Made by a program: the position numbers and the translations under genes. The notes beneath the pieces were generated by a model. That model was not told the DNA's origin. It worked only from the letters and a program-made list of their open reading frames with translations, and searched no databases. A stretch of DNA of 64,000 bases from Escherichia phage vB_Eco_BCPEco_001. The DNA is taken from the sequence record PV295200.1; one strand, given 5' to 3'. This document shows, in pieces, positions 95 through 32,539 of this stretch (positions are counted from its first letter, which is position 1; the number at the start of each line of letters is the position of its first letter).

Positions 95-3000
95 CTATTT
101 TAACCTGTGTTGGATTTTCAGGGTCTCTTGGATTTCCTATATTGTCTTTTAGACGTTTATTAACTAAATCTCTAAATTGTGCAAATGTTGTTCCAGAAGC
201 ATCAAATAGAGGACTCATTAATTTACGTCGTTCAGACGGCAATTGACCTTGAAACATTGAATTATTATTTTCAGCATTATAGTCATCAGGAAGAGGATAT
301 TCTACACCAGCCATTGGGCCAGGTTCATAAATTGCTTCTCCTGTTACTGAATCATGTTCAATTTCGCCAGTTGGAGTTAATTTAGCTACTCTATCAGCAT
401 ATTCAGTAGGCAATCCAGAATCCCATTTGTAGTTTTTGTATTTATTAATTATAGTCTCTGTGTGTTTAAGAGTTAAACCAACATTAATAAACATCGTTAA
501 AAGGGTAATTGCTATAAATCCAAATCCTACTGGATGAACAAAACGAATAACGTCAGATTTCCAGCGAGAAGAAGGTAAATTGGATTTAATTTTCATTACA
601 TAATATGATCGGCTTCTATTAATATAGTCTATATTATTTTGAAGCAAATCCTTTCCTTTAACCCCACGAATAATTTCGCCTTCAAAACTAGGAAGTCTTT
701 CTGCTTTAACTTCTTGACCAGCAATTAATCTTCCCAAAAGATTATGAATAGTTACGGTCCATTGCAATTTACCATTAGAATAACTTCTTTCTATATAAGT
801 AACATTACATCTTCCTGTGGATGTATAAATCGTTTGTCCTACTAAATCTTCAGTCAAAGAATCAGATTGAACGATTATGTCATATTCAGTACCAGCCCCA
901 GATTCAATTTCAATTTCAACTTCTTCATTATAAAGAACTTTAAAAAGAAACTTGTATGATGCTTCAATTCCTTTAGTAGAATAAAAATCATAGCTACGTG
1001 ATTCAAAAAATCTTGCAACAGCATCTCGCTTATCCGCGTTCAAATAAATGTTTCTTTTATATATCTCTGACCACAAATATTCCCATGCATGCTCTTCTCG
1101 TGGATACTGATTACGAATTAAATTTCGTAAATTGTTATACTGAGTTCCATATCCATCAGAAAGATACTGAATATATGCTTCGCAAAATGCCTCAAAATTC
1201 GAATCCTGCAACAAATAAGAATCAGGCATCATTGTGCCAATTAATGGTCTTAAATCAGGATCAGCTAATCCATGCTCTTCTTCTGGTGACCAAGGAGTCT
1301 CATGCTCTTGGTTTTGTAAAAATGCTTTTAAAAATACTCCAGTCGGCTTCCAAATAATTTCTACTGTATCTCTCACACGATAGTTAAAATCATAGTAAGA
1401 AATTATTTCACCAGAGGCTTTATAGAAAAGCATTCCTGATGCATATTTTTTAAATCCAGTGAATTTAACATTTGGCATTACTATAGTGCAATCACCATCA
1501 TCCCAGTATTCATGAACTAATCTATCTGGTGATGTTTCCGGAATATTTTCTATAACTTTAGTGTATTTTAAATCAGCATAAACTACTACAGCTCTATCAG
1601 AATTGTTTATCCAACAGCGTGTGTTAGATTTTTTAGACCAGTTAAAGAACGGTTCTGCGTAGTATTTCATTGGTTGAGGAGTAAAAGTCTCCCAATCAGA
1701 TTTTTCATCCGCTATAAATGCCATCATATGATAATGCTTATCAGCTAACCATTCACGAGGAAATTCATATTTAACAGCACCGATTAACTGATATTTTGCT
1801 GCAGTTTCAGGGTCATTAACAATGTTATCACTTAAAAATTTAAAATTACTCGAAGATAGAGAAACTAATTTACCGTCAGTTGACATATTCGCATATCCGG
1901 GTTGAATACGTCTTCTTTCTTCTTCGGTATTACCGAAAACTCTTTTCCATGTTTTTTCGTCATGATTTAAAACATATATTCCTTTATCAGCAGAATCAAT
2001 TATTTTTGAAGTTCTCGGATTGGCATTTAATGTTTCAACTTCACCAATAATAAGAGCAAAAACTTTATCACCGATAGAATCCATTTTATAGCATACTGCT
2101 TTAGGATTTCCAGTTATAGTCATTGTATCAGGTTCAAAAAGTCTTTCCGAATATGTTGGAGATAATGGATCAGAATCTATAGGTGCATTACTCGTTTTTA
2201 TGTATCTAACTTTATCTCTGGCGACAACGTAAATGTAATCATCGGTGCAAGTAATAGCTTCTGCAATGCGGTATACATTCGCTGGTAAAGTCGCGTAAGT
2301 GGCAAAAATTTCTACATCAAACCCTAGATGCAATTGGTCACCAAGTTTAGCAAATGTTATATCATGCGAACTAAATCTGACATCATCGGCTGACCATCTA
2401 ACATCAGTAGATTTACGGCCGTAGAAAATCTTGTCGTATCCTAGAACGTATGTCGTGTTTGCAGATTGGTAATATACTGTCTTAGATAAAGGATATCCTA
2501 CACGGTCATTGAAGAGCTTTACAGCTTTCCAGGTTTGTCCTTTATCATTAGATACTTTAACCACGGGTTGATAACGCTCAAAAAGATATAGAATCCCTTC
2601 TGATTCCATCAAATAAACTCGGTTAATATCCTTACATACTTGCTGAATGGAACCTTGTATTTCATGATACTCATTTTCACCAATAATAAAATTACTGATT
2701 GATGAAACATCAACATATGATGGGCTGAATTGGAACGATTCATTCATCAATGCAGCCATTATAGTGTCATTATTAAAATTGACATAATTAGAATTGTTAA
2801 GAGTAAATTTTTCCTGAATGAATTTATTGGCTAATTGCATTTCAATCATGTTTTGAAATGTGTAAGCATTCGTAGCAAAAGTTTCAAACTCTTCCGTATA
2901 AACCCAATCAGATTGCTCAAAATCTTGTGCAGCTGTAGCTACTCTAATGATGTATGATGTTAGTGGATCAGCATCATCAAAAAAGAAACTATTGTTTGCT

Positions 3001-3185
3001 GTATATCCTAAATTAATCCAACGATATTGATCACTCGGGAGATTTTCCCCCGAGTCTGTTTTTGTCTCAGCGATTTCTACAAAATAGTAGAAATTAGCAC
3101 CAACGTCATCCCAGCGTACTTGCACCTGATTTGCGGATAACTTGGAAATTCTGAGACTAGTGACTGAAGGTGCTTTTACTGTCAT
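87..3185 (-). CDS. 7: baseplate wedge protein gp7
   Basis: 1032 aa ORF, same length as T4 gp7; synteny 5-6-7-8; stop overlaps gp8 start. Confidence 0.85.
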   Translation of the reverse strand: MTVKAPSVTSLRISKLSANQVQVRWDDVGANFYYFVEIAETKTDSGENLPSDQYRWINLGYTANNSFFFDDADPLTSYIIRVATAAQDFEQSDWVYTEEFETFATNAYTFQNMIEMQLANKFIQEKFTLNNSNYVNFNNDTIMAALMNESFQFSPSYVDVSSISNFIIGENEYHEIQGSIQQVCKDINRVYLMESEGILYLFERYQPVVKVSNDKGQTWKAVKLFNDRVGYPLSKTVYYQSANTTYVLGYDKIFYGRKSTDVRWSADDVRFSSHDITFAKLGDQLHLGFDVEIFATYATLPANVYRIAEAITCTDDYIYVVARDKVRYIKTSNAPIDSDPLSPTYSERLFEPDTMTITGNPKAVCYKMDSIGDKVFALIIGEVETLNANPRTSKIIDSADKGIYVLNHDEKTWKRVFGNTEEERRRIQPGYANMSTDGKLVSLSSSNFKFLSDNIVNDPETAAKYQLIGAVKYEFPREWLADKHYHMMAFIADEKSDWETFTPQPMKYYAEPFFNWSKKSNTRCWINNSDRAVVVYADLKYTKVIENIPETSPDRLVHEYWDDGDCTIVMPNVKFTGFKKYASGMLFYKASGEIISYYDFNYRVRDTVEIIWKPTGVFLKAFLQNQEHETPWSPEEEHGLADPDLRPLIGTMMPDSYLLQDSNFEAFCEAYIQYLSDGYGTQYNNLRNLIRNQYPREEHAWEYLWSEIYKRNIYLNADKRDAVARFFESRSYDFYSTKGIEASYKFLFKVLYNEEVEIEIESGAGTEYDIIVQSDSLTEDLVGQTIYTSTGRCNVTYIERSYSNGKLQWTVTIHNLLGRLIAGQEVKAERLPSFEGEIIRGVKGKDLLQNNIDYINRSRSYYVMKIKSNLPSSRWKSDVIRFVHPVGFGFIAITLLTMFINVGLTLKHTETIINKYKNYKWDSGLPTEYADRVAKLTPTGEIEHDSVTGEAIYEPGPMAGVEYPLPDDYNAENNNSMFQGQLPSERRKLMSPLFDASGTTFAQFRDLVNKRLKDNIGNPRDPENPTQVKIDE

Positions 3186-5164
3186 TGTGATATAGGCTCC
3201 AAATCGATAGTTAAGTATTGCGGACGTAAATCATTTTCAAATACAATCAGTGAACCATCACGGGTAAAGATAACATCATCGGTTGGGTCAGAATATAATT
3301 CAATAGTCTGAACCTCAAATTTTTCAGATGTTAAATTAATTTTAGCGATATTCCAATAAATCATGTCAGTCGGATAATTTATTTCACCGATAACATAGTA
3401 TTTGTCGCGTCCATCAGAATTTGCTAATTTATTAAAATCATTGCCTGTATATGGCTGAATGTTTTCATTTTCTGTAACATCGCCAGAAGCAAATGGACCA
3501 ATAATAACTTTACCAATTCCTTTAGAATCTCGGTCTGTTGATACTATACGAACATCATATAATACATCTTCTTCTAAACCAGTATCAGGATTTACAACCT
3601 TTCGTCCAGAATTAAATGAAAACGTATTAGATTCCATAGAACGATCTTTTATTTGATTATTATATTTAATACCCGCTTCAGGCGTTTTATAGAAGTTTTG
3701 TACTTCACGAACCATTTGAATAGTCGCTGATGAACCAATGACAGAATGATCTGCATCATCTACATATGTCAACATCTTAGATTTAGCGAAAGACGAGTTA
3801 AAAATTTCTACATCTTCGGTATAATAGCGATCAATTTTATCAATTATTTGACCTTCAAGCCACTGTTCGGATTCTTGCAGCTTATTTAAAGCATATGTGA
3901 CTTTTAAATTAGTCTTAATAAAAAGGTAATTAGGAGAAATAATTGATGGTGTAATAGGAGCTAAATTATAGTCTTTGAGATAATTTTTAATATCTTCACG
4001 CTGTACGGTAGTTAAATACAGACCTGATTTAGGTTTAGCAGCAATAAATGCATACCCAGGTTTAGTAGAATCAGTGAAAGTTTGAACAGCTTGAATAATA
4101 GAACCAAATCTCTCTGAAACGAATGTATCATAGTCAGTCGCAGTTACGCATCGTTGCTGGGTTTCGCGTTTAATAGTACCCAATTCGCGAATACGCTCAA
4201 TATCTTCTGGATCACCGCCTCCATCTGCCCCAACAAAATCTGGGTCACCGTTTGGATTTTCATTAATATTGATGACAGTTATATTTGTTAATGTGTCTGC
4301 GTATGAAAATCCGACTGCTCCGTTCGCGTCAGCACCATTAGTACTAATGTACTCAATAACAATCGTAGAGTTCTGAGTAGGTTTAAGACCTCCAATATAA
4401 TTAGCAGTCAAAGCTCCTTCAGAAGCATTAACAGAAATTTCACCTTCACCAAAATAGAATTCAGTGTTTCCATCAATAGTTTCACGCATATAGTAAATCG
4501 TTGATGTTGAACCAGCATGAACCATTGACTTTCTCGTCCAGTTAATCCATTCCGCTCCATCAACATATAATTTAACCTGGTTTCTATCAATATTTTTATC
4601 ATAAATGATAATAGGTGTTAATTTATCATAAATGATTTCAGTTCTTACTATACGTCCCTGGGCCAATTTTAAACGTGGAAAATATTGGTTATTTTTATCA
4701 CGAATAGCAATAACGTCTTCGGTAGAAACGAAGTTATATGGATTAACAGAAGTATCTTTTGCATATGCTAAAAAGCGAGTTCCGCGAGGAATTGTAATGT
4801 AATTCCTATTCAATGCGTCGGTGCATGTTAACATAATTTCGGTTTGCGCAGCGGATTTTGAAGTAGGTAAATATCCGTTATCTTGTGCAGCTTGAACAAC
4901 TGAGCTTCGTAAGTTAGCAGTACGCATAAAGCTTTCATATACAGCAGCATTACCAAACTGCTGAATGTACAGCGTATTATAAGCCAAAAGGTCACACAGA
5001 ACGTTTAATCTTGAGCCTTCAAAATCATAATCCAAAAATTCATTTTGGCCATTAAGCCATTCAATGAGGTTTTGTTTTATTTCAGCAAACGTACCCCCGA
5101 CGAATATCTCGGGAATAGCATTTGCTGTTCTTGTTAATTGATAATTTACAGGGGTATTTGCCAT
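3182..5164 (-). CDS. 6: baseplate wedge protein gp6
   Basis: 660 aa ORF, same length as T4 gp6; ATGA overlap with gene 7. Confidence 0.85.
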   Translation of the reverse strand: MANTPVNYQLTRTANAIPEIFVGGTFAEIKQNLIEWLNGQNEFLDYDFEGSRLNVLCDLLAYNTLYIQQFGNAAVYESFMRTANLRSSVVQAAQDNGYLPTSKSAAQTEIMLTCTDALNRNYITIPRGTRFLAYAKDTSVNPYNFVSTEDVIAIRDKNNQYFPRLKLAQGRIVRTEIIYDKLTPIIIYDKNIDRNQVKLYVDGAEWINWTRKSMVHAGSTSTIYYMRETIDGNTEFYFGEGEISVNASEGALTANYIGGLKPTQNSTIVIEYISTNGADANGAVGFSYADTLTNITVININENPNGDPDFVGADGGGDPEDIERIRELGTIKRETQQRCVTATDYDTFVSERFGSIIQAVQTFTDSTKPGYAFIAAKPKSGLYLTTVQREDIKNYLKDYNLAPITPSIISPNYLFIKTNLKVTYALNKLQESEQWLEGQIIDKIDRYYTEDVEIFNSSFAKSKMLTYVDDADHSVIGSSATIQMVREVQNFYKTPEAGIKYNNQIKDRSMESNTFSFNSGRKVVNPDTGLEEDVLYDVRIVSTDRDSKGIGKVIIGPFASGDVTENENIQPYTGNDFNKLANSDGRDKYYVIGEINYPTDMIYWNIAKINLTSEKFEVQTIELYSDPTDDVIFTRDGSLIVFENDLRPQYLTIDLEPISQ

Positions 5165-5172
5165 TTTAAATC

Positions 5173-5466
5173 CTATTTAATGAATACTTTAGATGATGCC
5201 TGAGCCACAGTATCACCACATGATATTGGATCAGCCATTTGAACAGCTTTCTTTCCAGTGACATATACCTTAGAAGTTCTGGGTTGTGTCACTCCGCCAT
5301 GTGTTTCATATGGCTTTTTAATTTCTGTATGTTCTGTAATTGGATCGCCTTCTACTAGAACAGCAATTCCTCCAGTGAATACTTTACTTTGCGTAGCATT
5401 CACAACTGTTGGAGGCCACGCTTCATGGCCAGCAGTAACACACTTATCATAACTCAATCCTGACAT
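5173..5466 (-). CDS. 5.4: gp5.4 PAAR-repeat spike tip protein
   Basis: 97 aa, same size as T4 gp5.4; Gly/Val/Thr-rich PAAR-like composition; sits between gene 5 and gene 6. Confidence 0.7.
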
Positions 5467-6050
5467 TTATAATACCCCGCTTTAACTCGCCCCTTTAAGG
5501 TACTATAATTTATATTAAGAGCTTTAGCTGCGATTTTAATACTTTTATATAAAACGCCGTTGATAATAACAGATTTAGCATTAGGGGCTATTTTGCCATA
5601 CCTTGGGTTATTGGCGCCACACATCTTCAGAGTTTTACCTCTAGGCCCTCTAGGCCCTCTTTTTCTAGACGATTTAATGCTAATTTTCAATCTAGTTTCA
5701 CGCGAATGAGATTTACCGTAAAATCCATTTTTAGCACCCGCTGTGTTATGTTTTGGGAAGCCACCGATACCGCCTAGTTTCATATTATAAGTTTTCTTAG
5801 ATTTAACAAATTCCTCTGTGACTATTTCTGCCTCTGCGTCATACATAGCTTTTTCAGATTCAAAGAATTTTATAATATGCTTATAAAAATTATCTATGCC
5901 ATATTTTTTAATGGCATTTTTAATGGCAACGCCAGAACCCATATACCCATCATCCAAATTTGAAGTTTTGTGGACGCCTACATAAATTTTTCCTGTTGTT
6001 TTATTAGTTATTGAATACAAATAAAAATATTTATGGTCTTGCATAGGCAT
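5454..6050 (-). CDS. GIY-YIG homing endonuclease (Seg-like), free-standing
   Basis: 198 aa; N-terminal motif [20 protein letters not shown] (GIY-YIG core); basic C-terminal region; overlaps both flanking genes. Confidence 0.7.
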
Positions 6051-6588
6051 ATTCTCTCAATTTATTAGCCCAACGACTCCAATTTCCAACTATAGTTTTT
6101 GTGTAATTTTTAACAAGAGTTTTTCTTATTGGAGCTGGAGGATCAGTTGGTTCAGTGGTATCAGAAGATGACCTAGAATTACTACCAGAACCTCCAGATT
6201 CACTTTGTTCTTGGTAGTCATATATTAATGTTACTTCGTAAGTGAATGTCTTCTGGAGGTTCTGAGGAGCTTTCCATAAATACAATTGGGTATTAGAATC
6301 AGTTGGAAGGTCTTCCCATGAAGCAGCAGTTTTAAATTCATTATCTAAACGATATTTCAACGCATCATTTCCAAATCCAAATACAGATTCATACGTTCCA
6401 TATAAACGATTTTCTTCTACTAAAACTCCAGGAGTTTCTTCGTAACTAGTTATATTTATAGATACTAACGTTTCACCTGTTTCTAATTGAGCGGTAAAGG
6501 TGACGTCGATAGAAGAACCTTCCATGGATTCTCCTAAATCAGCGCTCATTGGAAGTATATTAGCCAATGTCAATCCTCGATCCATCAA
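6031..6588 (-). CDS. gp5.1-like hypothetical protein
   Basis: 185 aa ORF immediately downstream of gene 5 on the minus strand; Ser/Gly-rich linker; an alternative start 13 codons in would remove the overlap with gene 5. Confidence 0.5.
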   Translation of the reverse strand: MMDRGLTLANILPMSADLGESMEGSSIDVTFTAQLETGETLVSINITSYEETPGVLVEENRLYGTYESVFGFGNDALKYRLDNEFKTAASWEDLPTDSNTQLYLWKAPQNLQKTFTYEVTLIYDYQEQSESGGSGSNSRSSSDTTEPTDPPAPIRKTLVKNYTKTIVGNWSRWANKLREYAYARP

Positions 6589-12655: not shown

Positions 12656-12689
12656 TACCCTATCAAAACAAAACCAAATGGAAATCAAA

Positions 12690-12923
12690 ATGAAAACTTT
12701 CAAAGAGTTTATCGCTGAAACTGCTGATGTAAAAGTTGAGTTTATTTACACTGGCAAGAAAGATAAAATGGGTGAAATGCCTCATGGAGTTCTTCGTGAT
12801 GCATTAGATAATTTCGGTCAACTCGCCGCAGAAGATTACGGTGATAAAATTGTTGTTACTGGTCCTGCTGCAGTTATTGAAAAATGGGCAGCAGAAAATA
12901 AATCAATTTTTCGTAAAAAATAA
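12690..12923 (+). CDS. internal protein (ip-like) with capsid targeting sequence
   Basis: 77 aa from MKTFKEFIAE TADVKVE...; a possible 4-codon extension (MEIKM) would start at 12678. Confidence 0.65.
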   Translation: MKTFKEFIAETADVKVEFIYTGKKDKMGEMPHGVLRDALDNFGQLAAEDYGDKIVVTGPAAVIEKWAAENKSIFRKK

Positions 12924-24850: not shown

Positions 24851-25020
24851 ATAGTTTTGAGTTACAATATGAAGTGTTACGTGAGCTTGATAATTTAATT
24901 GAACTCGCTGTCAATAAAGGTTTTGCCATTGGAATCGGTCAAAAAGATACTGGTCATTTAACTATGGAAATATTTAAGCAAAAGCGAATTATTTTAAAAC
25001 TCCTGGAAATTAATATATGA
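24847..25020 (+). CDS. hypothetical small protein
   Basis: 57 aa ORF MNSFELQYEVLRELDNL..., ATGA-coupled on both sides; below the track length cutoff. Confidence 0.35.
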   Translation: MNSFELQYEVLRELDNLIELAVNKGFAIGIGQKDTGHLTMEIFKQKRIILKLLEINI

Positions 25021-25202
25021 GTCTGAGTAAAGAACAAAAAGATAAATTGTTTGAGCTTATCCATGAACTTCTAGATGAGCATACAGAAGCAAACACCTTT
25101 TATGATGAATACGGCCCGCTATCTCCCGAACAGCAAGAAGAATTTGCTGATCGGTTTGATAAGAAAGAAAACGAATTAATAGCTTATGTGAATATGCTTT
25201 AA
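25017..25202 (+). CDS. hypothetical acidic protein
   Basis: 61 aa. Confidence 0.4.
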   Translation: MSLSKEQKDKLFELIHELLDEHTEANTFYDEYGPLSPEQQEEFADRFDKKENELIAYVNML

Positions 25203-25835: not shown

Positions 25836-26048
25836 ATGCTACAATTAACTGAAAAGCAACTTCGCAATCTTACTGTGCTTCAATTAGATGAAATTCGTAG
25901 GGAAGTTGGAAATATCATTTCAGCTTTGCGTCGAGAAGTATCACTCAACCAATCTCCGGCAGACTATACTAGATTGCGAAATTTTGAAAAATACCTTGAT
26001 AAAGTTAAGGCCGTGCATCGGCATAAAGTAAATACAGGACAAAAATGA
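25836..26048 (+). CDS. hypothetical protein (position of T4 rI.1)
   Basis: 70 aa; SD AAGGGG. Confidence 0.45.
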
Positions 26049-26060
26049 TAGGAGGCCTTT

Positions 26061-26354
26061 ATGGCCTTAAAAGCAACGGCACTATTTGCCATGCTAGGAT
26101 TAGCGTTTGCTTTATCTCCATCGATTGAAGCGAATGTCGATCCTCATTTTGATAAATTTATGGAATCTGGTATTAGACACGTTTATATGCTTTTTGAAAA
26201 TAAAAGCGTAGAATCATCTGAACAGTTCTATAGTTTTATGCGAACGACTTATAAAAATGACCCGTGCTCTTCCGATTTTGAATGTATAGAGCGAGGCGCG
26301 GAGATGGCACAATCATACGCTAGAATTATGAACATTAAATTGGAGACTGAATGA
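26061..26354 (+). CDS. rI: lysis inhibition regulator RI (periplasmic antiholin)
   Basis: 97 aa as in T4 RI; N-terminal signal-anchor MALKATALFAMLGLAFA; adjacent to tk. Confidence 0.7.
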   Translation: MALKATALFAMLGLAFALSPSIEANVDPHFDKFMESGIRHVYMLFENKSVESSEQFYSFMRTTYKNDPCSSDFECIERGAEMAQSYARIMNIKLETE

Positions 26355-26737
26355 AATTCAGCGACTTTTCACAAAGTGGAAAACCTTCAAAGGCAGATGA
26401 ATACTTAGGTTTATTAATGGCTGCACAAGCTTATTTTCATTCTGCACATTTTGAAACTAAAAGTTATGCTAGACACAAAGCATACGATTTTATTTTCTCT
26501 GAATTGCCAGATTTGATTGATAAATTTGGTGAGCAATATTTAGGGTATTCTGGTAGAAAATACACGCCTTCTATTCCAGACGCCAGTAAACTTCCTACCG
26601 ATACAATTAAAATGATTGATCACATACTAGATCAATCTAACAGCATTTATAAAGAAATGCCTCCAGCCATTCAAAGCACGATAGATGATATCACTGGGAT
26701 GTTTTACCAGAGTAAATATCTTCTTTCCCTCGAATAA
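26351..26737 (+). CDS. hypothetical protein
   Basis: 128 aa, ATGA-coupled to rI. Confidence 0.5.
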
Positions 26738-26741
26738 CATT

Positions 26742-26765
26742 AGTCTCCTTCGGGAGACTTTTTTC
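26742..26765 (+). terminator. rho-independent terminator
   Basis: agtctcc ttcg ggagact followed by tttttt. Confidence 0.65.
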
Positions 26766-26774
26766 ATTTTACCG

Positions 26775-26804
26775 GTTTACTTTCCATTTGAGCTGTGATA
26801 CTAT
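26775..26804 (+). promoter_or_regulatory. early promoter (-35 GTTTAC, -10 TACTAT)
   Basis: ggtttactttccatttgagctgtgatactatac. Confidence 0.5.
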
Positions 26805-26832
26805 ACAAATATCGGATAAAGAGGAGAACATC

Positions 26833-27021
26833 ATGAAAATTGAAGCACTTAATCAAGAAGGAAATATCTACGTCATCATTAATGGTGATTTTTTCGTCGA
26901 CATGGATGAAGTTACTAGTGAAGAACTTGTAGAACTTCTTAAGAAACGTTATGATATGTGTGATGAAGCTGCAACTCATATGGCGTGTGCAATATTCTCT
27001 CTTTCATATGTGGTGGAATAA
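26833..27021 (+). CDS. hypothetical protein
   Basis: 62 aa from MKIEALNQ with SD GAGGAG; the track extension 26788 starts inside the promoter. Confidence 0.45.
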
Positions 27022-27224
27022 TGACTAGAATTGAACAAGCAGATAAAATTAAAGAATTGGTAGCTTTAATTCGCAAAGCAGATGAGGAACTTAGTGACTT
27101 TGCTTGGTTTTCGGCAGGCATTGCAAATAAAGGTATTGAAAAATTTGAAGCTAAAGTTGATAATGCTGTAGAAGCTTTAGATATGTTTCTTGATGAAATT
27201 ATCGATCATAATACGAGAGTTTAA
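27021..27224 (+). CDS. hypothetical protein
   Basis: 67 aa from [11 protein letters not shown]; TAATG overlap with the upstream stop. Confidence 0.45.
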   Translation: MTRIEQADKIKELVALIRKADEELSDFAWFSAGIANKGIEKFEAKVDNAVEALDMFLDEIIDHNTRV

Positions 27225-27226
27225 GT

Positions 27227-27421
27227 ATGCTAACACGTAAACAGTTTGAAAAAATCATTAAATTAGCACGTGATATTGAAATAGATTCATACCAATTGGC
27301 AGTTGAGCATTGTGAAGGATACTCATACGATGGTATAGAAGCAGCTAAAAAGGATTTGGATAAATCCAAAGCTAAGTTAGTTCAATATCTTGAAATGATT
27401 AGGTGGAATAATGAAAACTGA
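27227..27421 (+). CDS. hypothetical protein
   Basis: 64 aa. Confidence 0.45.
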   Translation: MLTRKQFEKIIKLARDIEIDSYQLAVEHCEGYSYDGIEAAKKDLDKSKAKLVQYLEMIRWNNEN

Positions 27422-27584
27422 AAAGCAGATGTTTTTAATGAAGCTAATTGAAGAATATGCTAATGCAGTTTCTGACTATGAATGTTCTTCTCGTGAAAGA
27501 GGTACAGCTTTCGCTAAAGAAGAATTGAAAATCATGGTTGATGCTCATACAAAGCTTCAGAATTTTATTGAAAACGTCATTTAA
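27411..27584 (+). CDS. hypothetical small protein
   Basis: 57 aa ORF MKTEKQMFLMKLIEEY..., overlaps the upstream gene end; below the track cutoff. Confidence 0.35.
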   Translation: MKTEKQMFLMKLIEEYANAVSDYECSSRERGTAFAKEELKIMVDAHTKLQNFIENVI

Positions 27585-27748
27585 TGGTTTACAAGTTGGC
27601 AAGGTTATGGTATAGTAATCTTGTCAACTGTCAAGGAGAAGAGAATGAAAATTTTGTTTGTTGTGTATGTGATGATTCAATATAATTACCCAATGTTTAC
27701 TTATAATCTGGTGAACAACATTATTGATATTATTCAAAGGAGTATGTA

Positions 27749-27934
27749 ATGACAAGTGAGCAGGCTTTTAAATTAAGAGAATTAATTGAGACGTATAGTA
27801 AAGCTGTTCATACATCAACAATTATTGATGAATCAGCTTTCTCCGGACATGCCAACAAGATTAAATACAAAACTCTTATGGAAGAAGCTAAAGTAAATCT
27901 TGATTCTTATATTGAAACTTTAATTGGTGAATAA
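27749..27934 (+). CDS. hypothetical protein
   Basis: 61 aa; SD AAGGAG; upstream promoter-like ggtttacaagttggcaaggttatggtatagtaat. Confidence 0.45.
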   Translation: MTSEQAFKLRELIETYSKAVHTSTIIDESAFSGHANKIKYKTLMEEAKVNLDSYIETLIGE

Positions 27935-27935
27935 C

Positions 27936-28202
27936 ATGGGCTTTCCTAAATTAGAAGTAGGTGATTTGGTCTTAACAAAATTATGGAATGATGTTCAATC
28001 AGTAGAAATCTGTCAATATCGTGGAGCAACAGGTAATTTGATGTACACGATTTATAATCCAGAAATTTTATTAGAGTGTCATTTGGAACGCTTTATAAAA
28101 GACACCGATAGTATGCCGTATAGTGTATCGATTGTACGTAAATCTGATACAAAGGAATACTCTAAAATTTTAGAACAAATCAGCGCAAATAAAAAGGATT
28201 AA
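27936..28202 (+). CDS. hypothetical protein
   Basis: 88 aa from the ATG (MGFPKLEV) just after the upstream stop; the track start at 27924 is a TTG. Confidence 0.45.
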   Translation: MGFPKLEVGDLVLTKLWNDVQSVEICQYRGATGNLMYTIYNPEILLECHLERFIKDTDSMPYSVSIVRKSDTKEYSKILEQISANKKD

Positions 28203-28203
28203 T

Positions 28204-28737
28204 ATGAAACGATTAGTATTAGAAGTTAGTCCACTTTTTGGTGAATTGGCTATAGAAAAAGTAAATAATATGTATCGTTTGACGCAAGAAGACGATATGC
28301 TGTATTTTACACCTAGTGAAATTATTCATTTAACCCAAATTGAATATCCTTATACTGATAAAATAGTAAGCATCAATGATGAGCACAAAATTCATTTTTA
28401 TTCTTCATGCCCAGGATTTAATATTAAAAGTGAGTCAATGTGTTTATCAGTTATCCATTGGGATAGTTTTATAGATAAGATTAAATATTTTTATTATTCT
28501 AATGAAAGAAAACATAGTTTAAAATGGCTCAAAAATTGCAATGCTATTATTACTAACGCTTGCAATCAGAATGATGAAACTGTTTTAAACGTATCAAAAT
28601 GCTATGAAGATGGTGATGTCTTAACTATTCGTCAAATTGATGATTTTCGATCGCATATTGTCACATTTACCAAAGACGAAGCTATTGCGCTAAAGACTTA
28701 TCTCGATTCTGTCATTCCAACTATGATTTCAAAGTGA
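28204..28737 (+). CDS. hypothetical protein, paralog A of a tandem pair
   Basis: 177 aa; C-terminus TFTKDEAIALKTYLDSVIPTMISK is homologous to the C-terminus of the next gene. Confidence 0.5.
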   Translation: MKRLVLEVSPLFGELAIEKVNNMYRLTQEDDMLYFTPSEIIHLTQIEYPYTDKIVSINDEHKIHFYSSCPGFNIKSESMCLSVIHWDSFIDKIKYFYYSNERKHSLKWLKNCNAIITNACNQNDETVLNVSKCYEDGDVLTIRQIDDFRSHIVTFTKDEAIALKTYLDSVIPTMISK

Positions 28738-28743
28738 GGAAAT

Positions 28744-29265
28744 ATGTTTATTTCAAGTGGAAGTGGTTTAATTCGTGTTGAATTTAAAAATGACATCTTC
28801 CTTATTCAAGGAGATGATATTATTAAAATGAGTTATGATGAAATTAAGAAAATTTGTAATGCTCTTGAAAGTCATGGAAAAGTGAACGCTGTTATTGATA
28901 TTGGTGATTTATGGGTGACACTTTATGAAGTATCCGAAGGATTTAATATTGAAGATGAAAACAACATCTTAGCTATTGATAAAAGAAGCGATTTGTTTGA
29001 TGTGTTAAAAGTTTATGAACAGTCAAACGGTGGAAGAAAAGCTGTATTGATTTATCAAAAACCACATTCATGTGGAACTGCTTCAATCATTTCAGATATT
29101 GAAGATGAAACTGATACTTATATGTGTGTTTTAAAAGCTGGTGGTGACCGTCATCCGGATTTTATTTCTATTCGTCAAAACAATGGAGAAATTTCATTGT
29201 CAAAATCAGAAGCTGAAGCTATGATTAAGTATTTAACAACCGTTACGCCTTCAATGAAAGGATAA
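28744..29265 (+). CDS. hypothetical protein, paralog B of a tandem pair
   Basis: 173 aa; C-terminus SLSKSEAEAMIKYLTTVTPSMKG. Confidence 0.5.
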   Translation: MFISSGSGLIRVEFKNDIFLIQGDDIIKMSYDEIKKICNALESHGKVNAVIDIGDLWVTLYEVSEGFNIEDENNILAIDKRSDLFDVLKVYEQSNGGRKAVLIYQKPHSCGTASIISDIEDETDTYMCVLKAGGDRHPDFISIRQNNGEISLSKSEAEAMIKYLTTVTPSMKG

Positions 29266-29267
29266 TT

Positions 29268-29729
29268 ATGATTATTAATGAAAACTCTTGGCACTATAAA
29301 TTATTCAAATTGTTTAACGATGAATGGCAACGACCTAAGACACTATGCGCATATTTTTGGTCTATTGTTATCCCTACATTTTTCGTTTCTATTTTTGGGT
29401 GTGCTATACTCGTAGGGCTAACAATTATTTGTGCAGAAAGCTTACAACGATGGCTTATTTTCGGTAGTTTATGGACTTTGCTTCCATCAGCATTTATACT
29501 TGCCATTTTGCTTGTTTTACTTATTATTGGTTCATTTGTTATTCCTGTACATTTGCGTGAAAAATATAAAGATTATAAATGGAAAAAGGATTATGCTTTA
29601 CACGTAGAAAACATTGATAGGAAAAATAAAGGTTTACCTCCTATTCAACCCAAGAAATCGATTATCGTTGAATTTTTAAAAGCTCGTAAAGCTAAAGTAT
29701 GTCCTGTTATTGAATATAAGGCTGAATGA
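29268..29729 (+). CDS. membrane protein (2 predicted TM helices)
   Basis: 153 aa; two long hydrophobic segments followed by a basic cytoplasmic tail. Confidence 0.5.
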   Translation: MIINENSWHYKLFKLFNDEWQRPKTLCAYFWSIVIPTFFVSIFGCAILVGLTIICAESLQRWLIFGSLWTLLPSAFILAILLVLLIIGSFVIPVHLREKYKDYKWKKDYALHVENIDRKNKGLPPIQPKKSIIVEFLKARKAKVCPVIEYKAE

Positions 29730-30739
29730 TGAAAACAGTAATGAAAAGCTATTTTGGTAGCCATCTTTATGGAACTTCTACCCCAGAATCTGATGTAGAT
29801 TTTAAAGAAATCTTTGTTCCTCCTGCTCGCGATATTCTTATCGGAAATGTCAAAGAGCATATGAGTAAAAACACTAACAATACATCATCTAAAAACACTA
29901 AAGATGATATTGACCATGAACTATACAGTCTTAAATATTTCTTTAAATTAGCAGCAGATGGTGAAACTGTAGCATTAGATATGCTTCACACTCCACCTGA
30001 ACTAGTGGTTAAATCTGATTTGCCTGATGTGTGGAAGTTTATTCAAGACAACCGTTCTCGTTTTTATACGACTAACATGAAATCATATTTAGGATATGTC
30101 CGCAAGCAAGCTTCTAAATACGGTGTCAAGGGTTCTCGTTTGGCCGCATTACGTGATGTATTGAAAGTAGTTAATCAAATCCCTGAGCAATGGGTTGATT
30201 ACCAAGAAGACGGTTCCATTAAGCAGCGTCGAACTAAAGTTGAAGATATTAAGCATCGTCTTCCAGAGAACGAATTCTGTGAATGGGTATTCCATAATCA
30301 TGAGAAAACAGGCCCACAAACGTTCTACACTGTGTTGGGTCGTAAATATCAAACAACACTTTCTCTTATTGAGCTTAAGCAATCTTTGAATAAACTTGAT
30401 GCTGAATACGGCGAACGTGCTCGTAAGGCTGAAGCGAATGAGGGCATTGACTGGAAAGCTCTGAGTCATGCTTGCCGTGGTGGACTCCAACTATTGGAAA
30501 TTTACAAAACTGGCGACTTGGTTTACCCACTTCAAGACGCTCCATTTATTCTCGACGTGAAGTTGGGTAAACATCCATTTAAAACCGTTCAAGAGTTTTT
30601 GGAAGATGTGGTCGATCAAGTAGAAGCAGCATCTACTGAAGCTTCTAAGAACGGTATGCAGCAAAAAGTAGACATGGGTTTCTGGGATGACTTCCTTGAG
30701 AAGGTCTATCTTGAAAACCACCGAAGTTATTATAAATGA
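29726..30739 (+). CDS. predicted nucleotidyltransferase (pol-beta superfamily-like)
   Basis: 337 aa; N-terminal FGSHLYGTSTPESDVDF fits the hG[GS]x9-13 Dh[DE] nucleotidyltransferase signature; candidate third acidic residue in VALDMLH. Confidence 0.5.
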   Translation: MMKTVMKSYFGSHLYGTSTPESDVDFKEIFVPPARDILIGNVKEHMSKNTNNTSSKNTKDDIDHELYSLKYFFKLAADGETVALDMLHTPPELVVKSDLPDVWKFIQDNRSRFYTTNMKSYLGYVRKQASKYGVKGSRLAALRDVLKVVNQIPEQWVDYQEDGSIKQRRTKVEDIKHRLPENEFCEWVFHNHEKTGPQTFYTVLGRKYQTTLSLIELKQSLNKLDAEYGERARKAEANEGIDWKALSHACRGGLQLLEIYKTGDLVYPLQDAPFILDVKLGKHPFKTVQEFLEDVVDQVEAASTEASKNGMQQKVDMGFWDDFLEKVYLENHRSYYK

Positions 30740-30741
30740 TA

Positions 30742-30767
30742 GGGAGCCTTCGGGCTCCCTTTTTTTA
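30742..30767 (+). terminator. rho-independent terminator
   Basis: gggagcc ttcg ggctccc followed by ttttttt. Confidence 0.65.
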
Positions 30768-30771
30768 TTTC

Positions 30772-30819
30772 AAAAATTTTTCACAAAACGGTTTACAAGC
30801 ATAAAGCTTTATGGTACTA
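30772..30819 (+). promoter_or_regulatory. early promoter with conserved leader (promoter-plus-stem-loop type cassette)
   Basis: tttttcacaaaacggtttacaagcataaagctttatggtactatacaactatcaactgatacggatttggagaataaaATG; leader near-identical to 59026-59107. Confidence 0.6.
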
Positions 30820-30854
30820 TACAACTATCAACTGATACGGATTTGGAGAATAAA

Positions 30855-31823
30855 ATGAAAACTGTAACTATCAATAAGGGTATCTACTTTGGTAAAGAAA
30901 TCTCTGGAACTTTTGAGCTCTTAGGCGAATGGTTCCCAGATAATGCTCCGGTGGATGCACAAGGAGATGGTAAAGTTTTTGTTGAAATTGACGGTAAGCG
31001 TCGCGGTGTTTGGGTTTACAAATCAGACATTTCATATGATGGTGTAAAAGTTGAAGAAGTTAAAGAATCATATGAAGATATGAAAACCCGCATTAATAAA
31101 AGATTTAATGTTATGGGAATGATGACGAATGGTATTATTAACGGAAACATTCGTTCATTAATTATCTCTGGTGCGGCGGGTATTGGTAAAACGTATTCTT
31201 TAGATAAAGCTTTAAATAAAGCAAATGATATTGGATACATTGAGTATAAAAGCATTAATGGTAAAATCTCAGGTATCGGTCTTTATGAGCAGCTCTGGAA
31301 TAATCGTGAAGAGAATTCTGTCCTTTTGATTGATGATGTGGATGTTTTCTCTGATATGGACATTCTTAATCTTCTGAAAGCTGCTCTGGACACTGGAGAG
31401 ACCCGTAAAGTCTGCTGGAGCACTGCATCTTCTTACTTAGAAGAAAAAGGCATTGACCGTGAGTTTGAATTTAAAGGAACAATTGTTTTTATCACAAACG
31501 TTGATATTGACCGCGAATTAGACCGTGGTACTAAACTTGCTCCACATTTACAAGCATTAGTGTCCCGCTCAGTTTATTTAGATTTGGGTGTTCACACTAA
31601 TGAAGAAATTATGGTCAGGGTTGAAGATGTTATTCTTTCAACCGACATGATGCAAAAGCGCGGTCTTTCTGATGAAGAAACTTATAAAGCATTATCATGG
31701 ATGAAAGTCAATGTTAACCGTTTACGTAATGTTTCACTGCGTACTGCACTTTATCTTGCTGACTTTATTATGACCGACAAAAACGGTTGGGAAGAAATCG
31801 CTGAAACGGTATTGTTAAAATGA
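30855..31823 (+). CDS. P-loop ATPase (AAA-like)
   Basis: 322 aa from MKTVTINKG; Walker A GAAGIGKT, Walker B VLLIDDVD; track ORF 30687 is an upstream extension through the promoter. Confidence 0.6.
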   Translation: MKTVTINKGIYFGKEISGTFELLGEWFPDNAPVDAQGDGKVFVEIDGKRRGVWVYKSDISYDGVKVEEVKESYEDMKTRINKRFNVMGMMTNGIINGNIRSLIISGAAGIGKTYSLDKALNKANDIGYIEYKSINGKISGIGLYEQLWNNREENSVLLIDDVDVFSDMDILNLLKAALDTGETRKVCWSTASSYLEEKGIDREFEFKGTIVFITNVDIDRELDRGTKLAPHLQALVSRSVYLDLGVHTNEEIMVRVEDVILSTDMMQKRGLSDEETYKALSWMKVNVNRLRNVSLRTALYLADFIMTDKNGWEEIAETVLLK

Positions 31824-32539
31824 AAAAATATTTTACTATCTATAAAACTGAAATATTAAATTTAAAGACTGGCGTTAAGAAATATTATTATGGTCGACAT
31901 ATAACTAATAATATCAATGATTCGTATGTTGGTAGTGGAAATTATATAGAACGTGTAAAAGTGTCAAATGACCACATATTATCAAAAACGGTTTTAGAAG
32001 TTTTTGATAATTATGATAAAATGGTACAAGCTGAAATATTATATATCATGGCAGGTAAATTGAAATATGGAAAAAACTGTGTTAACCTGTCATACGGGGG
32101 TGAAGGAGGAAAGGTTGCAGATGAAACTAGAATAAAATGCAAAAAGCATTCTATAAATTTATGGAAAAATCCTAATCATATACAGCATATGAAGAAAAAG
32201 ATGAAAGAGGTCACATCCACGCCGGAAGCTAAATTAAACACTTCAATAAAAACTTCGCAACGATATAAGGACCCGGTTTTTGTTAGAAAAGTTAGTAATA
32301 TTATTAAAAAGAAACTAAGCAATCCTGCAGTAAAAGAAAAGCATATTAATGGAATTAAAGCTGCAAAGCGTTCTCATTTAACTATATGGCAGTATGAAGA
32401 TGAATTATTCGAGCTTTGGAAAGAAACTAAATGTGGATGGAGAAAATTTACAAAGGAAGCTATAAAACACGGATATCCAAATGAACCGTATCGTAGTATG
32501 GTATCAACTTTTCAGAAAAGACATTTAGAAGAATCCTAA
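31820..32539 (+). CDS. GIY-YIG homing endonuclease (Seg-like)
   Basis: 239 aa; KKYYYGRHITNNINDSYVGSG GIY-YIG-type N-terminus; basic C-terminal DNA-binding-like region; ATGA-coupled to the upstream ATPase. Confidence 0.6.
   Translation: MKKYFTIYKTEILNLKTGVKKYYYGRHITNNINDSYVGSGNYIERVKVSNDHILSKTVLEVFDNYDKMVQAEILYIMAGKLKYGKNCVNLSYGGEGGKVADETRIKCKKHSINLWKNPNHIQHMKKKMKEVTSTPEAKLNTSIKTSQRYKDPVFVRKVSNIIKKKLSNPAVKEKHINGIKAAKRSHLTIWQYEDELFELWKETKCGWRKFTKEAIKHGYPNEPYRSMVSTFQKRHLEES

Follow-up and report, generated by a model that had tools for sequence, protein, structure and literature searches.

The y05I proteins form a small, catalogued and uncharacterised family of T4-like phages. The tandem pair described here is already on record as Pfam PF24449/PF24448, as PHROG 1502 and in the GenBank record of phage RB14, where the note ‘similar to mobD.1’ indicates that annotators had noticed the paralogy earlier. 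The Pfam family name derives from the UniProt entry Y05I_BPT4, which is T4 mobD.1, and in the RB14 record the neighbouring gene RB32ORF096c carries the note ‘replaces mobD’. Our literature search found mobD.1 in one homing-endonuclease review, as a landmark only, and returned irrelevant papers for ‘y05I’; the supplements of the Viral AlphaFold Database do not mention the family. Two identities suggested by the names in circulation were tried and rejected. RefSeq calls MobD a ‘molybdopterin-guanine dinucleotide biosynthesis protein’, a mis-expansion of the locus name mobD.1, in which mob means mobile endonuclease; Pfam/NCBIfam matches are to y05I families only. The proteins are not homing endonucleases themselves either, as neither ORF matches a nuclease family and, in T4, mobD is a gene of its own that follows mobD.1.

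For the predicted fold, the described systems that come closest are PC4-like folds, in which two beta4-alpha repeats pair either inside one chain (type I) or across two (type II), a single repeat being unlikely to fold alone and normally pairing (PMC7549692). Pur-alpha is the only reported protein that does both, with repeats I and II pairing within the chain and repeat III dimerising (PMC7549692). A further point of reference is SsgB, a Streptomyces protein that forms a ‘whirly’-shaped trimer and recruits FtsZ (PMC8061694).

Here, we describe a tandem pair of y05I genes in Escherichia phage vB_Eco_BCPEco_001. What this adds is modest: a division of the proteins into three beta4-alpha units, an argument from acidity, a cassette of y05I_C and membrane-protein genes (with a tudor gene) and its duplication, and the existence of hybrid and mosaic alleles.

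Genomic setting

The window, meaning the whole 64,000-nt stretch of DNA that was analysed (record PV295200.1), is assigned to Tequatrovirus on nucleotide identity: over positions 27900-29800, Shigella phage vB_Shso_BCPShso_001 matches at 100% and hundreds of Tequatrovirus genomes match at 92-99%. Gene order on the plus strand is vs, tk, rI, small mobD.x ORFs, the two y05I ORFs, a membrane-protein gene, nrdC.11 and nrdC.10 (Table 1). The locus is the tk-nrdC accessory region, which T-even phages transcribe early, in keeping with the first-pass annotation, which had put the pair in an accessory region. The order rI, DUF7438 ORFs, (tudor), y05I and, further on, nrdC.11 is common to the window, T4, RB14 and RB18, and the ORFs occupy the syntenic place of T4 mobD.1, between the small ORFs mobD.2-mobD.5 and nrdC.11. 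By profile match, nrdC.11 encodes an RlaP-type nucleotidyltransferase belonging to an RNA-repair family.

The two adjacent ORFs, of 177 and 173 aa, lie at exactly the coordinates first assigned to them, on the plus strand, and the opposite strand within both holds no ORF of at least 40 aa. Genes here are tightly spaced, each next gene having its Shine-Dalgarno sequence at or over the preceding stop codon. Both ORFs have such a sequence, and the GAGG of the second overlaps the stop codon of mobD.1. Upstream, the stop codon of a Phage_tudor gene ends 1 nt ahead of the mobD.1 start; its protein has 88 aa if translation begins at ATG 27936 and 92 aa if it begins at TTG 27924. Downstream, the gene for a small polytopic membrane protein starts 2 nt past the stop codon of the second paralog.

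Searches of NCBIfam and PADLOC with the two paralogs and the genes next to them returned no matches. The sole match in an Rfam scan of 26000-31000, to L20_leader, is sub-threshold and lies outside the genes, and promoter and terminator scans of the region showed no enrichment over shuffles. One 10-of-12 sigma-70-like match overlaps the motif of the second paralog. An HMM search of all ORFs in the window for an extra N domain, C domain or single unit found none; positions 12678-12923, a weak candidate for a further copy, were set aside with no Pfam match in support.

Table 1. Positions of the y05I gene pair, its predicted parts and its neighbours in the window
Feature	Position (nt)	Strand	Protein or residues	Details
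rI	26061-26354	+		
Phage_tudor domain gene	27924..28202	+		upstream cassette member; PF24144, E 9.5e-40
mobD.1 ortholog (T4 Y05I)	28204..28737	+	177 aa, pI 5.5	PF24449, E 2.3e-39; PF24448, E 1.6e-21
MobD.1 N domain, predicted units 1 and 2	28204-28509	+	aa 1-102	
MobD.1 C domain, predicted unit 3	28510-28734	+	aa 103-177	
10-nt microhomology	28573..28582 and 29104-29113	+		GATGAAACTG; equivalent codon positions in both paralogs
Motif in MobD.1	28663..28725	+		TFTKDEAIALKTYLDSVIPTM
Second paralog (‘RB32ORF097c’ type)	28744..29265	+	173 aa, pI 4.7	PF24449, E 1e-34; PF24448, E 2.3e-23
Second paralog, N domain		+	aa 1-98	
Second paralog, C domain		+	aa 99-173	
Motif in second paralog	29194..29256	+		SLSKSEAEAMIKYLTTVTPSM
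Small polytopic membrane protein gene (‘RB32ORF096c’)	29268..29729	+	153 aa, pI 9.5	phrog_944, E 2.9e-51

Kinship of the two proteins

The two ORFs are, with near certainty, functional and anciently diverged paralogs of the y05I/MobD.1 family. BLASTP aligns the 177-aa and 173-aa proteins end to end at 27% identity (E 9e-10), and both belong to Pfam T4_y05I with both domains: for N and C, respectively, the bit scores are 134.4 and 76.8 in the 177-aa protein and 119.6 and 82.7 in the 173-aa protein, well over the gathering cut-offs of 24.9 (PF24449, T4_y05I_N) and 27 (PF24448, T4_y05I_C). Both also match phrog_1502 (E 6e-81 and 7e-67). For mobD.1, dN/dS is 0.04-0.36 and for the second copy 0.08-0.24; both copies are under purifying selection.

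How this kinship is distributed along the chain was assessed with a 2000-shuffle test of pairwise similarity. The whole proteins score z = 13.9, the last 28 residues z = 8.4 and the N-terminal ~100 residues z = 8.7, with none of the 2000 shuffles reaching the observed score in either of the two segments; from residue ~101 to ~149, between the N domain and the motif, pairwise similarity is no longer detectable (z = 0.9). The first-pass annotation had recognised a tandem paralog pair sharing a C-terminal segment, the rest of the proteins having diverged. The pairing holds, and the homology reaches far beyond a few residues, spanning the full length and both domains. The statement about the rest is overstated, because only residues ~101-149 have no detectable pairwise similarity, whereas the N-terminal ~100 residues are clearly related. 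At the DNA level, in-register stretches of just 10-21 nt are left between the genes, as expected for old paralogs.

The shared C-terminal motif

The C-terminal motif is present as it was originally described, with TFTKDEAIALKTYLDSVIPTM and SLSKSEAEAMIKYLTTVTPSM identical at 9 of 21 residues. It is conserved as protein and not as DNA, since nucleotide identity between the paralogs over the motif is only 52% and the nine common residues use the same codon in five cases and different codons in four. The residues that are invariant across the family, E159, Y166, L167 and P172, fall inside it. In the structural models, the motif is predicted to comprise the last strand of unit 3, an amphipathic helix and a conserved tail of low confidence (for MobD.1, strand 150-155, helix 157-170 and tail 172-177 with pLDDT below 50).

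Judged from sequence comparison, unit 3 with its motif appears to be the only part of the family conserved in all T4-like genera examined, stand-alone versions included. These stand-alone y05I_C proteins (phrog_7763, phrog_10804), found in Tegunavirus, Winklervirus, Jiaodavirus, Marfavirus and Gelderlandvirus, have the same C domain and motif (…FTK.EA.AL..YLNSVIPTM…). It is likely that the motif is conserved because the C domain acts at the protein level, as the one universal part of a gene module to which the membrane protein also belongs.

Predicted domain architecture

AF2 modelling of MobD.1 with the family alignment gives three beta4-alpha units, at residues 3-44, 53-101 and 105-170, with a mean pLDDT of 75.6. 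DSSP assigns strands 3-9, 13-20, 23-28 and 31-35 and helix 37-45 to unit 1, strands 53-56, 62-65, 72-75 and 80-83 and helix 86-101 to unit 2, and five strands and helix 157-170 to unit 3. Units 1 and 2 are predicted to form a compact N domain, which retains its topology when modelled alone (pLDDT 94.1, pTM 0.85), and unit 3 to form the C domain, whose pLDDT in the monomer model is only 60-70. Unit 3 appears to be a sequence repeat of unit 1: hhalign relates the two at a probability of 85% (E 6e-6), and they have in common the signature …Q-x-D-D…(I/V)-x-F-T-x-x-E…. Profile-profile comparison found no recognisable sequence similarity of unit 2 to the other units. Sub-threshold matches to DUF7189, a 68-residue family, came from 7 of 21 family members.

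The DSSP strand and helix topology of these models agrees with the definition of the PC4-like/PUR/Whirly-like fold (PMC7549692), but no significant superposition on a solved member was obtained. Sequence searches of the PDB, run with the two proteins singly and with the family profile, gave chance-level matches only (E about 0.7-1). Foldseek searches of the PDB with the full-length and N-domain models gave nothing below 1e-3, the best matches having E 0.006-0.04 and TM-scores of at most 0.53; a search of BFVD recovered the family and nothing else. The full-length search lists Drosophila Pur-alpha (3k44; probability 0.94, E 0.04, TM 0.29-0.36), which is absent from the N-domain-only search, in which SsgB (6suj, TM-score 0.40 normalised to the query) and 2it9 (TM 0.47) are weak matches. 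The structure 2it9 belongs, we presume, to the SCOP fold shared with PC4 and Whirly. As there is no significant PDB match, the analogy with PC4 and PUR proteins amounts to topology plus weak hits; that y05I proteins might work like PC4-like repeat proteins is a lead, with fold membership unproven.

The family is acidic: the members computed have a pI of 4.1-5.5 and net charges of -5 to -30, with the exception of one stand-alone protein (pI 9.2). Conserved residues of the N domain are mostly acidic or polar (E18, Q28, D30, D31, E75, E77). Among 21 members, no helix-turn-helix or other DNA- or RNA-binding family was matched even at E up to 10, and the proteins show neither a recognisable binding motif nor the basic or aromatic surface of a nucleic-acid-binding transcription factor. 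The acidity of the family argues against the Pfam label ‘putative transcription factor’, which neither charge nor any DNA-binding signature supports.

Distribution and history

The second copy, at an identity of 90% or above, is present in 433 phage records, and the pair occurs in about 430 Tequatrovirus genomes. The family as a whole is small, with 28 representative clusters among 1.84 billion proteins; apart from a few spurious clusters of repetitive proteins, these trace to T4-like phages. Two matches of the representative search, of 1572 aa and 3120 aa, are repetitive proteins and were judged spurious. Among the loci examined, two full-length copies are found only in Tequatrovirus, and one copy is present in Mosigvirus, Gaprivervirus and several unassigned T4-like contigs.

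Identity between the 173-aa copy and the MobD.1 orthologs is just 27-30% in every case, and a neighbour-joining tree places the copy outside the whole set of orthologs. The duplication therefore predates the split of several genera, or else the copy was acquired laterally. The local gene duplication proposed at first is thus only loosely right, and the event is not recent.

The locus is active in recombination. The RB18-type MobD.1 allele is Mosigvirus-like (52-69% nucleotide identity) to about residue 140, but the final ~30 codons agree with the window at 98% identity, at synonymous sites as well. This mosaic pattern places a recombination junction within the conserved C-terminal segment. Moreover, a natural in-frame hybrid gene (P0021) joins the 5' part of MobD.1 to the 3' part of the paralog exactly at the microhomology GATGAAACTG; it occurs in contigs from several sequencing runs (three places retrieved), with the membrane gene directly 3' of it. 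The natural hybrid and the mosaic alleles show that the domains are exchangeable. Broken or truncated copies are present in RB14, T2, fPS-90, ECO4 and PG7, and the genes must therefore be dispensable under at least some conditions.

A conserved adjacency and a probable gene partnership

To survey the surroundings of the family, 32 family-bearing loci from at least 10 named genera and several unassigned T4-like contigs were annotated with the family HMMs and the neighbouring proteins of the window. At 31 of the 32 loci, the exception being T4, the last y05I or y05I_C gene is followed directly by a homolog of the membrane protein (phrog_944); at intact loci the two genes overlap at stop and start or lie up to about 10 nt apart. 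This adjacency is kept where the N domain has been lost, in front of C-domain genes of 74-83 aa in Tegunavirus, Winklervirus, Jiaodavirus and Marfavirus, and also where the tudor gene or, in Tegunavirus TG1, nrdC.11 is missing. In Karamvirus PG7, the C-domain gene is frameshifted, yet still in position. In Tequatro-, Marfa-, Gelderland-, Winkler- and Karamvirus, these two genes are accompanied by the tudor gene, which often sits immediately upstream of the y05I or y05I_C gene.

Salmonella phage SEA1 (Gelderlandvirus) carries two such cassettes, one with the order tudor, C, C, membrane and the other with the order tudor, C, membrane. Between them, the tudor proteins are 44%, the C domains 35-39% and the membrane proteins 49% identical, and as each component is paralogous between the copies, the cassette was duplicated as a unit. 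Nevertheless, adjacency in collinear T4-like genomes is partly inherited and not independently selected. The partnership is also not obligatory, since T4 has retained an intact MobD.1 with the membrane gene absent. An unrelated jumbo Erwinia phage has a membrane-protein homolog without y05I_C. A search for y05I_C-membrane fusion proteins, prompted by 85 extra N-terminal columns in phrog_944, found none among 23 homologs.

Functional interpretation

At a probability of roughly 0.5, the best overall explanation is that the two proteins are old MobD.1 paralogs whose C domain is a pairing or docking half domain and that they belong to an accessory module. The C domain would be a ‘half domain’ that needs a partner copy, as in type II PC4-like folds and in repeat III of Pur-alpha, and its pairing would yield homodimers or, in Tequatrovirus, MobD.1/paralog heterodimers. 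It may also dock onto cytoplasmic parts of the neighbouring membrane protein. The acidic, allele-swappable N domains would then provide variable target specificity, and the module would have a dispensable early accessory function, such as host takeover, exclusion or competition, rather than acting as a DNA-binding transcription factor. The specific mechanism (pairing of C domains with one another, docking to the membrane protein, or both) is drawn by analogy and is put forward as a tentative proposal that falls well short of even odds.

A broader and doubtful extension is that the tudor, y05I or y05I_C and membrane genes make up an undescribed three-component early module of Tevenvirinae, in which the C half-domain would homo- or heterodimerise and tether the variable acidic N domains to a small inner-membrane protein. 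Were this true, the module could serve superinfection exclusion, an input to lysis timing or counter-defence at the membrane, and the tandem pair of Tequatrovirus would be an elaboration of it capable of forming heterodimers.

The low pI and net negative charge of the whole family would also suit acidic inhibitors or mimics working by themselves in the cytoplasm, for instance to block a host DNA-binding or defence protein. The membrane gene would then be a mere neighbour, and the conserved C-terminus would let the inhibitor oligomerise or bind its target. Divergent alleles circulate together within a single genus and the genes are often broken or truncated, as is typical of arms-race accessory genes, and T4 has MobD.1 without the membrane gene. 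We nonetheless judge this explanation unlikely. It leaves the strict adjacency, the tight spacing and the duplication as a unit without explanation, and dN/dS well below 1 gives no sign of diversifying selection within alleles. No defence-related model was matched, in PADLOC either, although PADLOC covers defence and not anti-defence proteins.

Rather improbable is a role as single-stranded nucleic-acid-binding regulators of the PUR/Whirly/PC4 kind, whose N domain would bind ssDNA or RNA and whose C domain would dimerise as in Pur-alpha. The arrangement of two beta4-alpha units followed by a third does match that of Pur-alpha, the full-length Foldseek search retrieves 3k44, SsgB and 2it9 weakly match the N domain, and the neighbour nrdC.11 encodes an enzyme of an RNA-repair family. 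However, all full-length and all but one of the stand-alone members are acidic, their conserved residues are mostly acidic or polar and not basic or aromatic, and hmmscan of 21 members found no PurA, Whirly, PC4 or DNA-binding Pfam family at E up to 10. Furthermore, no Foldseek match has E < 1e-3, and Pur-alpha is lost when the N domain is searched alone. Since the weak hit list includes SsgB, a recruiter of FtsZ (PMC8061694), such a fold does not imply nucleic-acid binding.

Finally, an embedded DNA or RNA element (a downstream promoter, a homing-endonuclease target or a recombination site) is very improbable as the cause of C-terminal conservation. In its favour, the mobD promoter has been placed in the 3' part of mobD.1, the gene ahead of it (PMC2988022), blastn detects no other stretch of the query in other genera than nt 28603-28726 (76-85% identity), and the RB18 junction lies in that segment. 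Synonymous-site divergence largely refutes the idea, with the motifs of the paralogs encoded by different codons at four of nine common residues (52% nucleotide identity) and differing codons at about half of the residues identical with Mosigvirus. The motif is also kept as protein in stand-alone genes of distant genera, and the sigma-70 scan is not enriched and places no promoter-like site in the MobD.1 motif; there is no Rfam hit.

Taken as found, this is an ordinary result: an accessory gene pair, catalogued but uncharacterised, that hundreds of sequenced T4-like phages carry. Its value lies in correcting annotations that have spread (the molybdopterin name is wrong and ‘putative transcription factor’ is unsupported) and in a domain-level description, with three beta4-alpha units and a C-terminal half-domain as the conserved core. 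By pointing to a membrane-protein gene as a conserved partner, it also makes out of an ORFan pair a small module that can be tested, in the phage family that has been studied best; if that partnership is real, it would add one more early membrane-associated function to the T-even phages.

Comparison with known systems

SsgB resembles the y05I proteins in being small, and it works by protein recruitment and not by nucleic acid binding; it has no sequence relationship to the family, is trimeric and lacks the C-terminal extra repeat, which makes the likeness an analogy only. Pur-alpha, too, has three beta4-alpha repeats, to which the modelled layout of the y05I proteins would correspond, and the type II dimers (PC4, YdbC and the T5 PC4-like protein) would have their counterpart in the stand-alone single-repeat y05I_C proteins. 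A point of difference from these domains is that the y05I family is acidic and not basic. Within the family, the stand-alone proteins, at 69-87 aa, differ from the pair in that the N domain is wholly absent.

The closest described relatives are genes of other T-even phages. RB32ORF097c and RB14ORF98 are the same gene as the 173-aa ORF, at ~95% nucleotide identity and with no material difference, and occupy the same tandem place ahead of RB32ORF096c and nrdC.11. T4 MobD.1 is the ortholog of the 177-aa ORF, with ~91% nucleotide identity over the gene and the same position after the mobD.2-mobD.5 ORFs, and the 173-aa ORF has a two-domain architecture like that of T4 MobD.1. The difference lies in copy number and in what follows: T4 has a single copy, and the HNH homing-endonuclease gene mobD stands in for the second copy and the membrane gene. 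If the y05I-membrane partnership is real, T4 would thus be a natural knockout of half the module.

Recombinant alleles of the mobD.1 pair

A natural hybrid of MobD.1 and its adjacent paralog occurs as a single-copy gene in contigs assembled from SRR23253223, SRR19633740 and SRR23253227 (L025-L027), its N-terminal part coming from MobD.1 and its C-terminal part from the paralog. The junction is a 10-nt microhomology, GATGAAACTG, present at window positions 28573-28582 and 29104-29113. A second type of chimera is found in RB18, RB27 and PE37-type Tequatroviruses, which lack the tudor gene and carry a Mosigvirus-like mobD.1 allele (~49% amino acid identity) that switches to 98% nucleotide identity over its final ~30 codons (RB18 compared with the window). 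This is allelic mosaicism, with the junction lying within the conserved motif region.

Coordinates of the features discussed
Feature	Record	Position	Strand	Match
Hybrid mobD.1 gene	L025	3001-3540
mobD.1 alleles compared for mosaicism	RB18 (L004) / window	2093-2635 / 28204-28737
First cassette	SEA1 (L028)	3152-4460
Second cassette	SEA1 (L028)	5373-6487
Split y05I_C gene	PG7 (L031)	2232-2466
Membrane-protein homolog	pEa_SNUABM_19 (L030)	2501-2980		E 2e-12
DUF7438 ORFs	window	25017-25202, 26985-27224, 27227-27421, 27411-27584, 27749-27934	+	PF24219
Misannotation sites (public records L001, L003-L006)	window	28204-28737, 29726-30739, 27749-27934
NrdC.10, AAA/STAND-like ATPase, 378-aa mechanical ORF	window	30687-31823	+
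Free-standing homing-endonuclease-like gene, 239 aa	window	31820-32539	+	phrog_314, E 4e-30

The cassette in other phages

Salmonella phage SEA1 (Gelderlandvirus) holds two cassettes of tudor, y05I_C (the MobD.1 C domain) and membrane-protein genes in a single genome, and in the first of these the stand-alone C-domain genes form a tandem pair overlapping by 11 nt. In Enterobacter phage PG7 (Karamvirus), tudor and membrane genes flank a y05I_C gene that is broken across two reading frames; it is a frameshifted pseudogene unless the break is a sequencing error. The 355-kb Erwinia jumbo phage pEa_SNUABM_19, which is not T4-like, also carries a homolog of the membrane-protein gene; neither y05I_C nor a tudor gene lies upstream of it, and the preceding ORF encodes 72 aa with a hydrophobic segment.

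Neighboring paralogs and gene names

Close upstream of the mobD.1 pair lies a second paralog array, comprising five or more short ORFs of 57-79 aa that match Pfam DUF7438 (E 2e-14 to 7e-19) and correspond to mobD.2a-mobD.5 and tk.x genes. The RefSeq name ‘helicase loader’ on one of these is without any support. Public records further call MobD.1 ‘molybdopterin-guanine dinucleotide biosynthesis protein MobD’, a propagated misannotation, misname the RlaP-type nucleotidyltransferase NrdC.11 (PF10127) as ‘thioredoxin’, and wrongly label a T2 fragment of MobD.1 ‘Prohead core scaffold protein’; in every case, gene-name confusion appears to be the source.

The nrdC.10 region

The mechanical NrdC.10 ORF overlaps nrdC.11 by 53 nt. 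Because the PHROG profile match begins only at residue 57, translation probably starts instead from the ATG at 30855, which would leave an intergenic gap of ~115 nt after nrdC.11. A sub-threshold Rfam L20_leader match (30612-30773; E 0.022, score 27.6 bits with the threshold at 58.7 bits) covers the 3' end of nrdC.11 and the beginning of this gap, and is probably due to chance.

Directly 3' of nrdC.10 lies the homing-endonuclease-like gene, whose product has no Pfam match; related endonuclease genes occupy other sites in other loci; in L017, for example, one separates the membrane gene from nrdC.11. T4 has no such gene at the site 3' of nrdC.10, and T4 MobD and the window protein have only a C-terminal region in common, with 26% identity over 116 aa.
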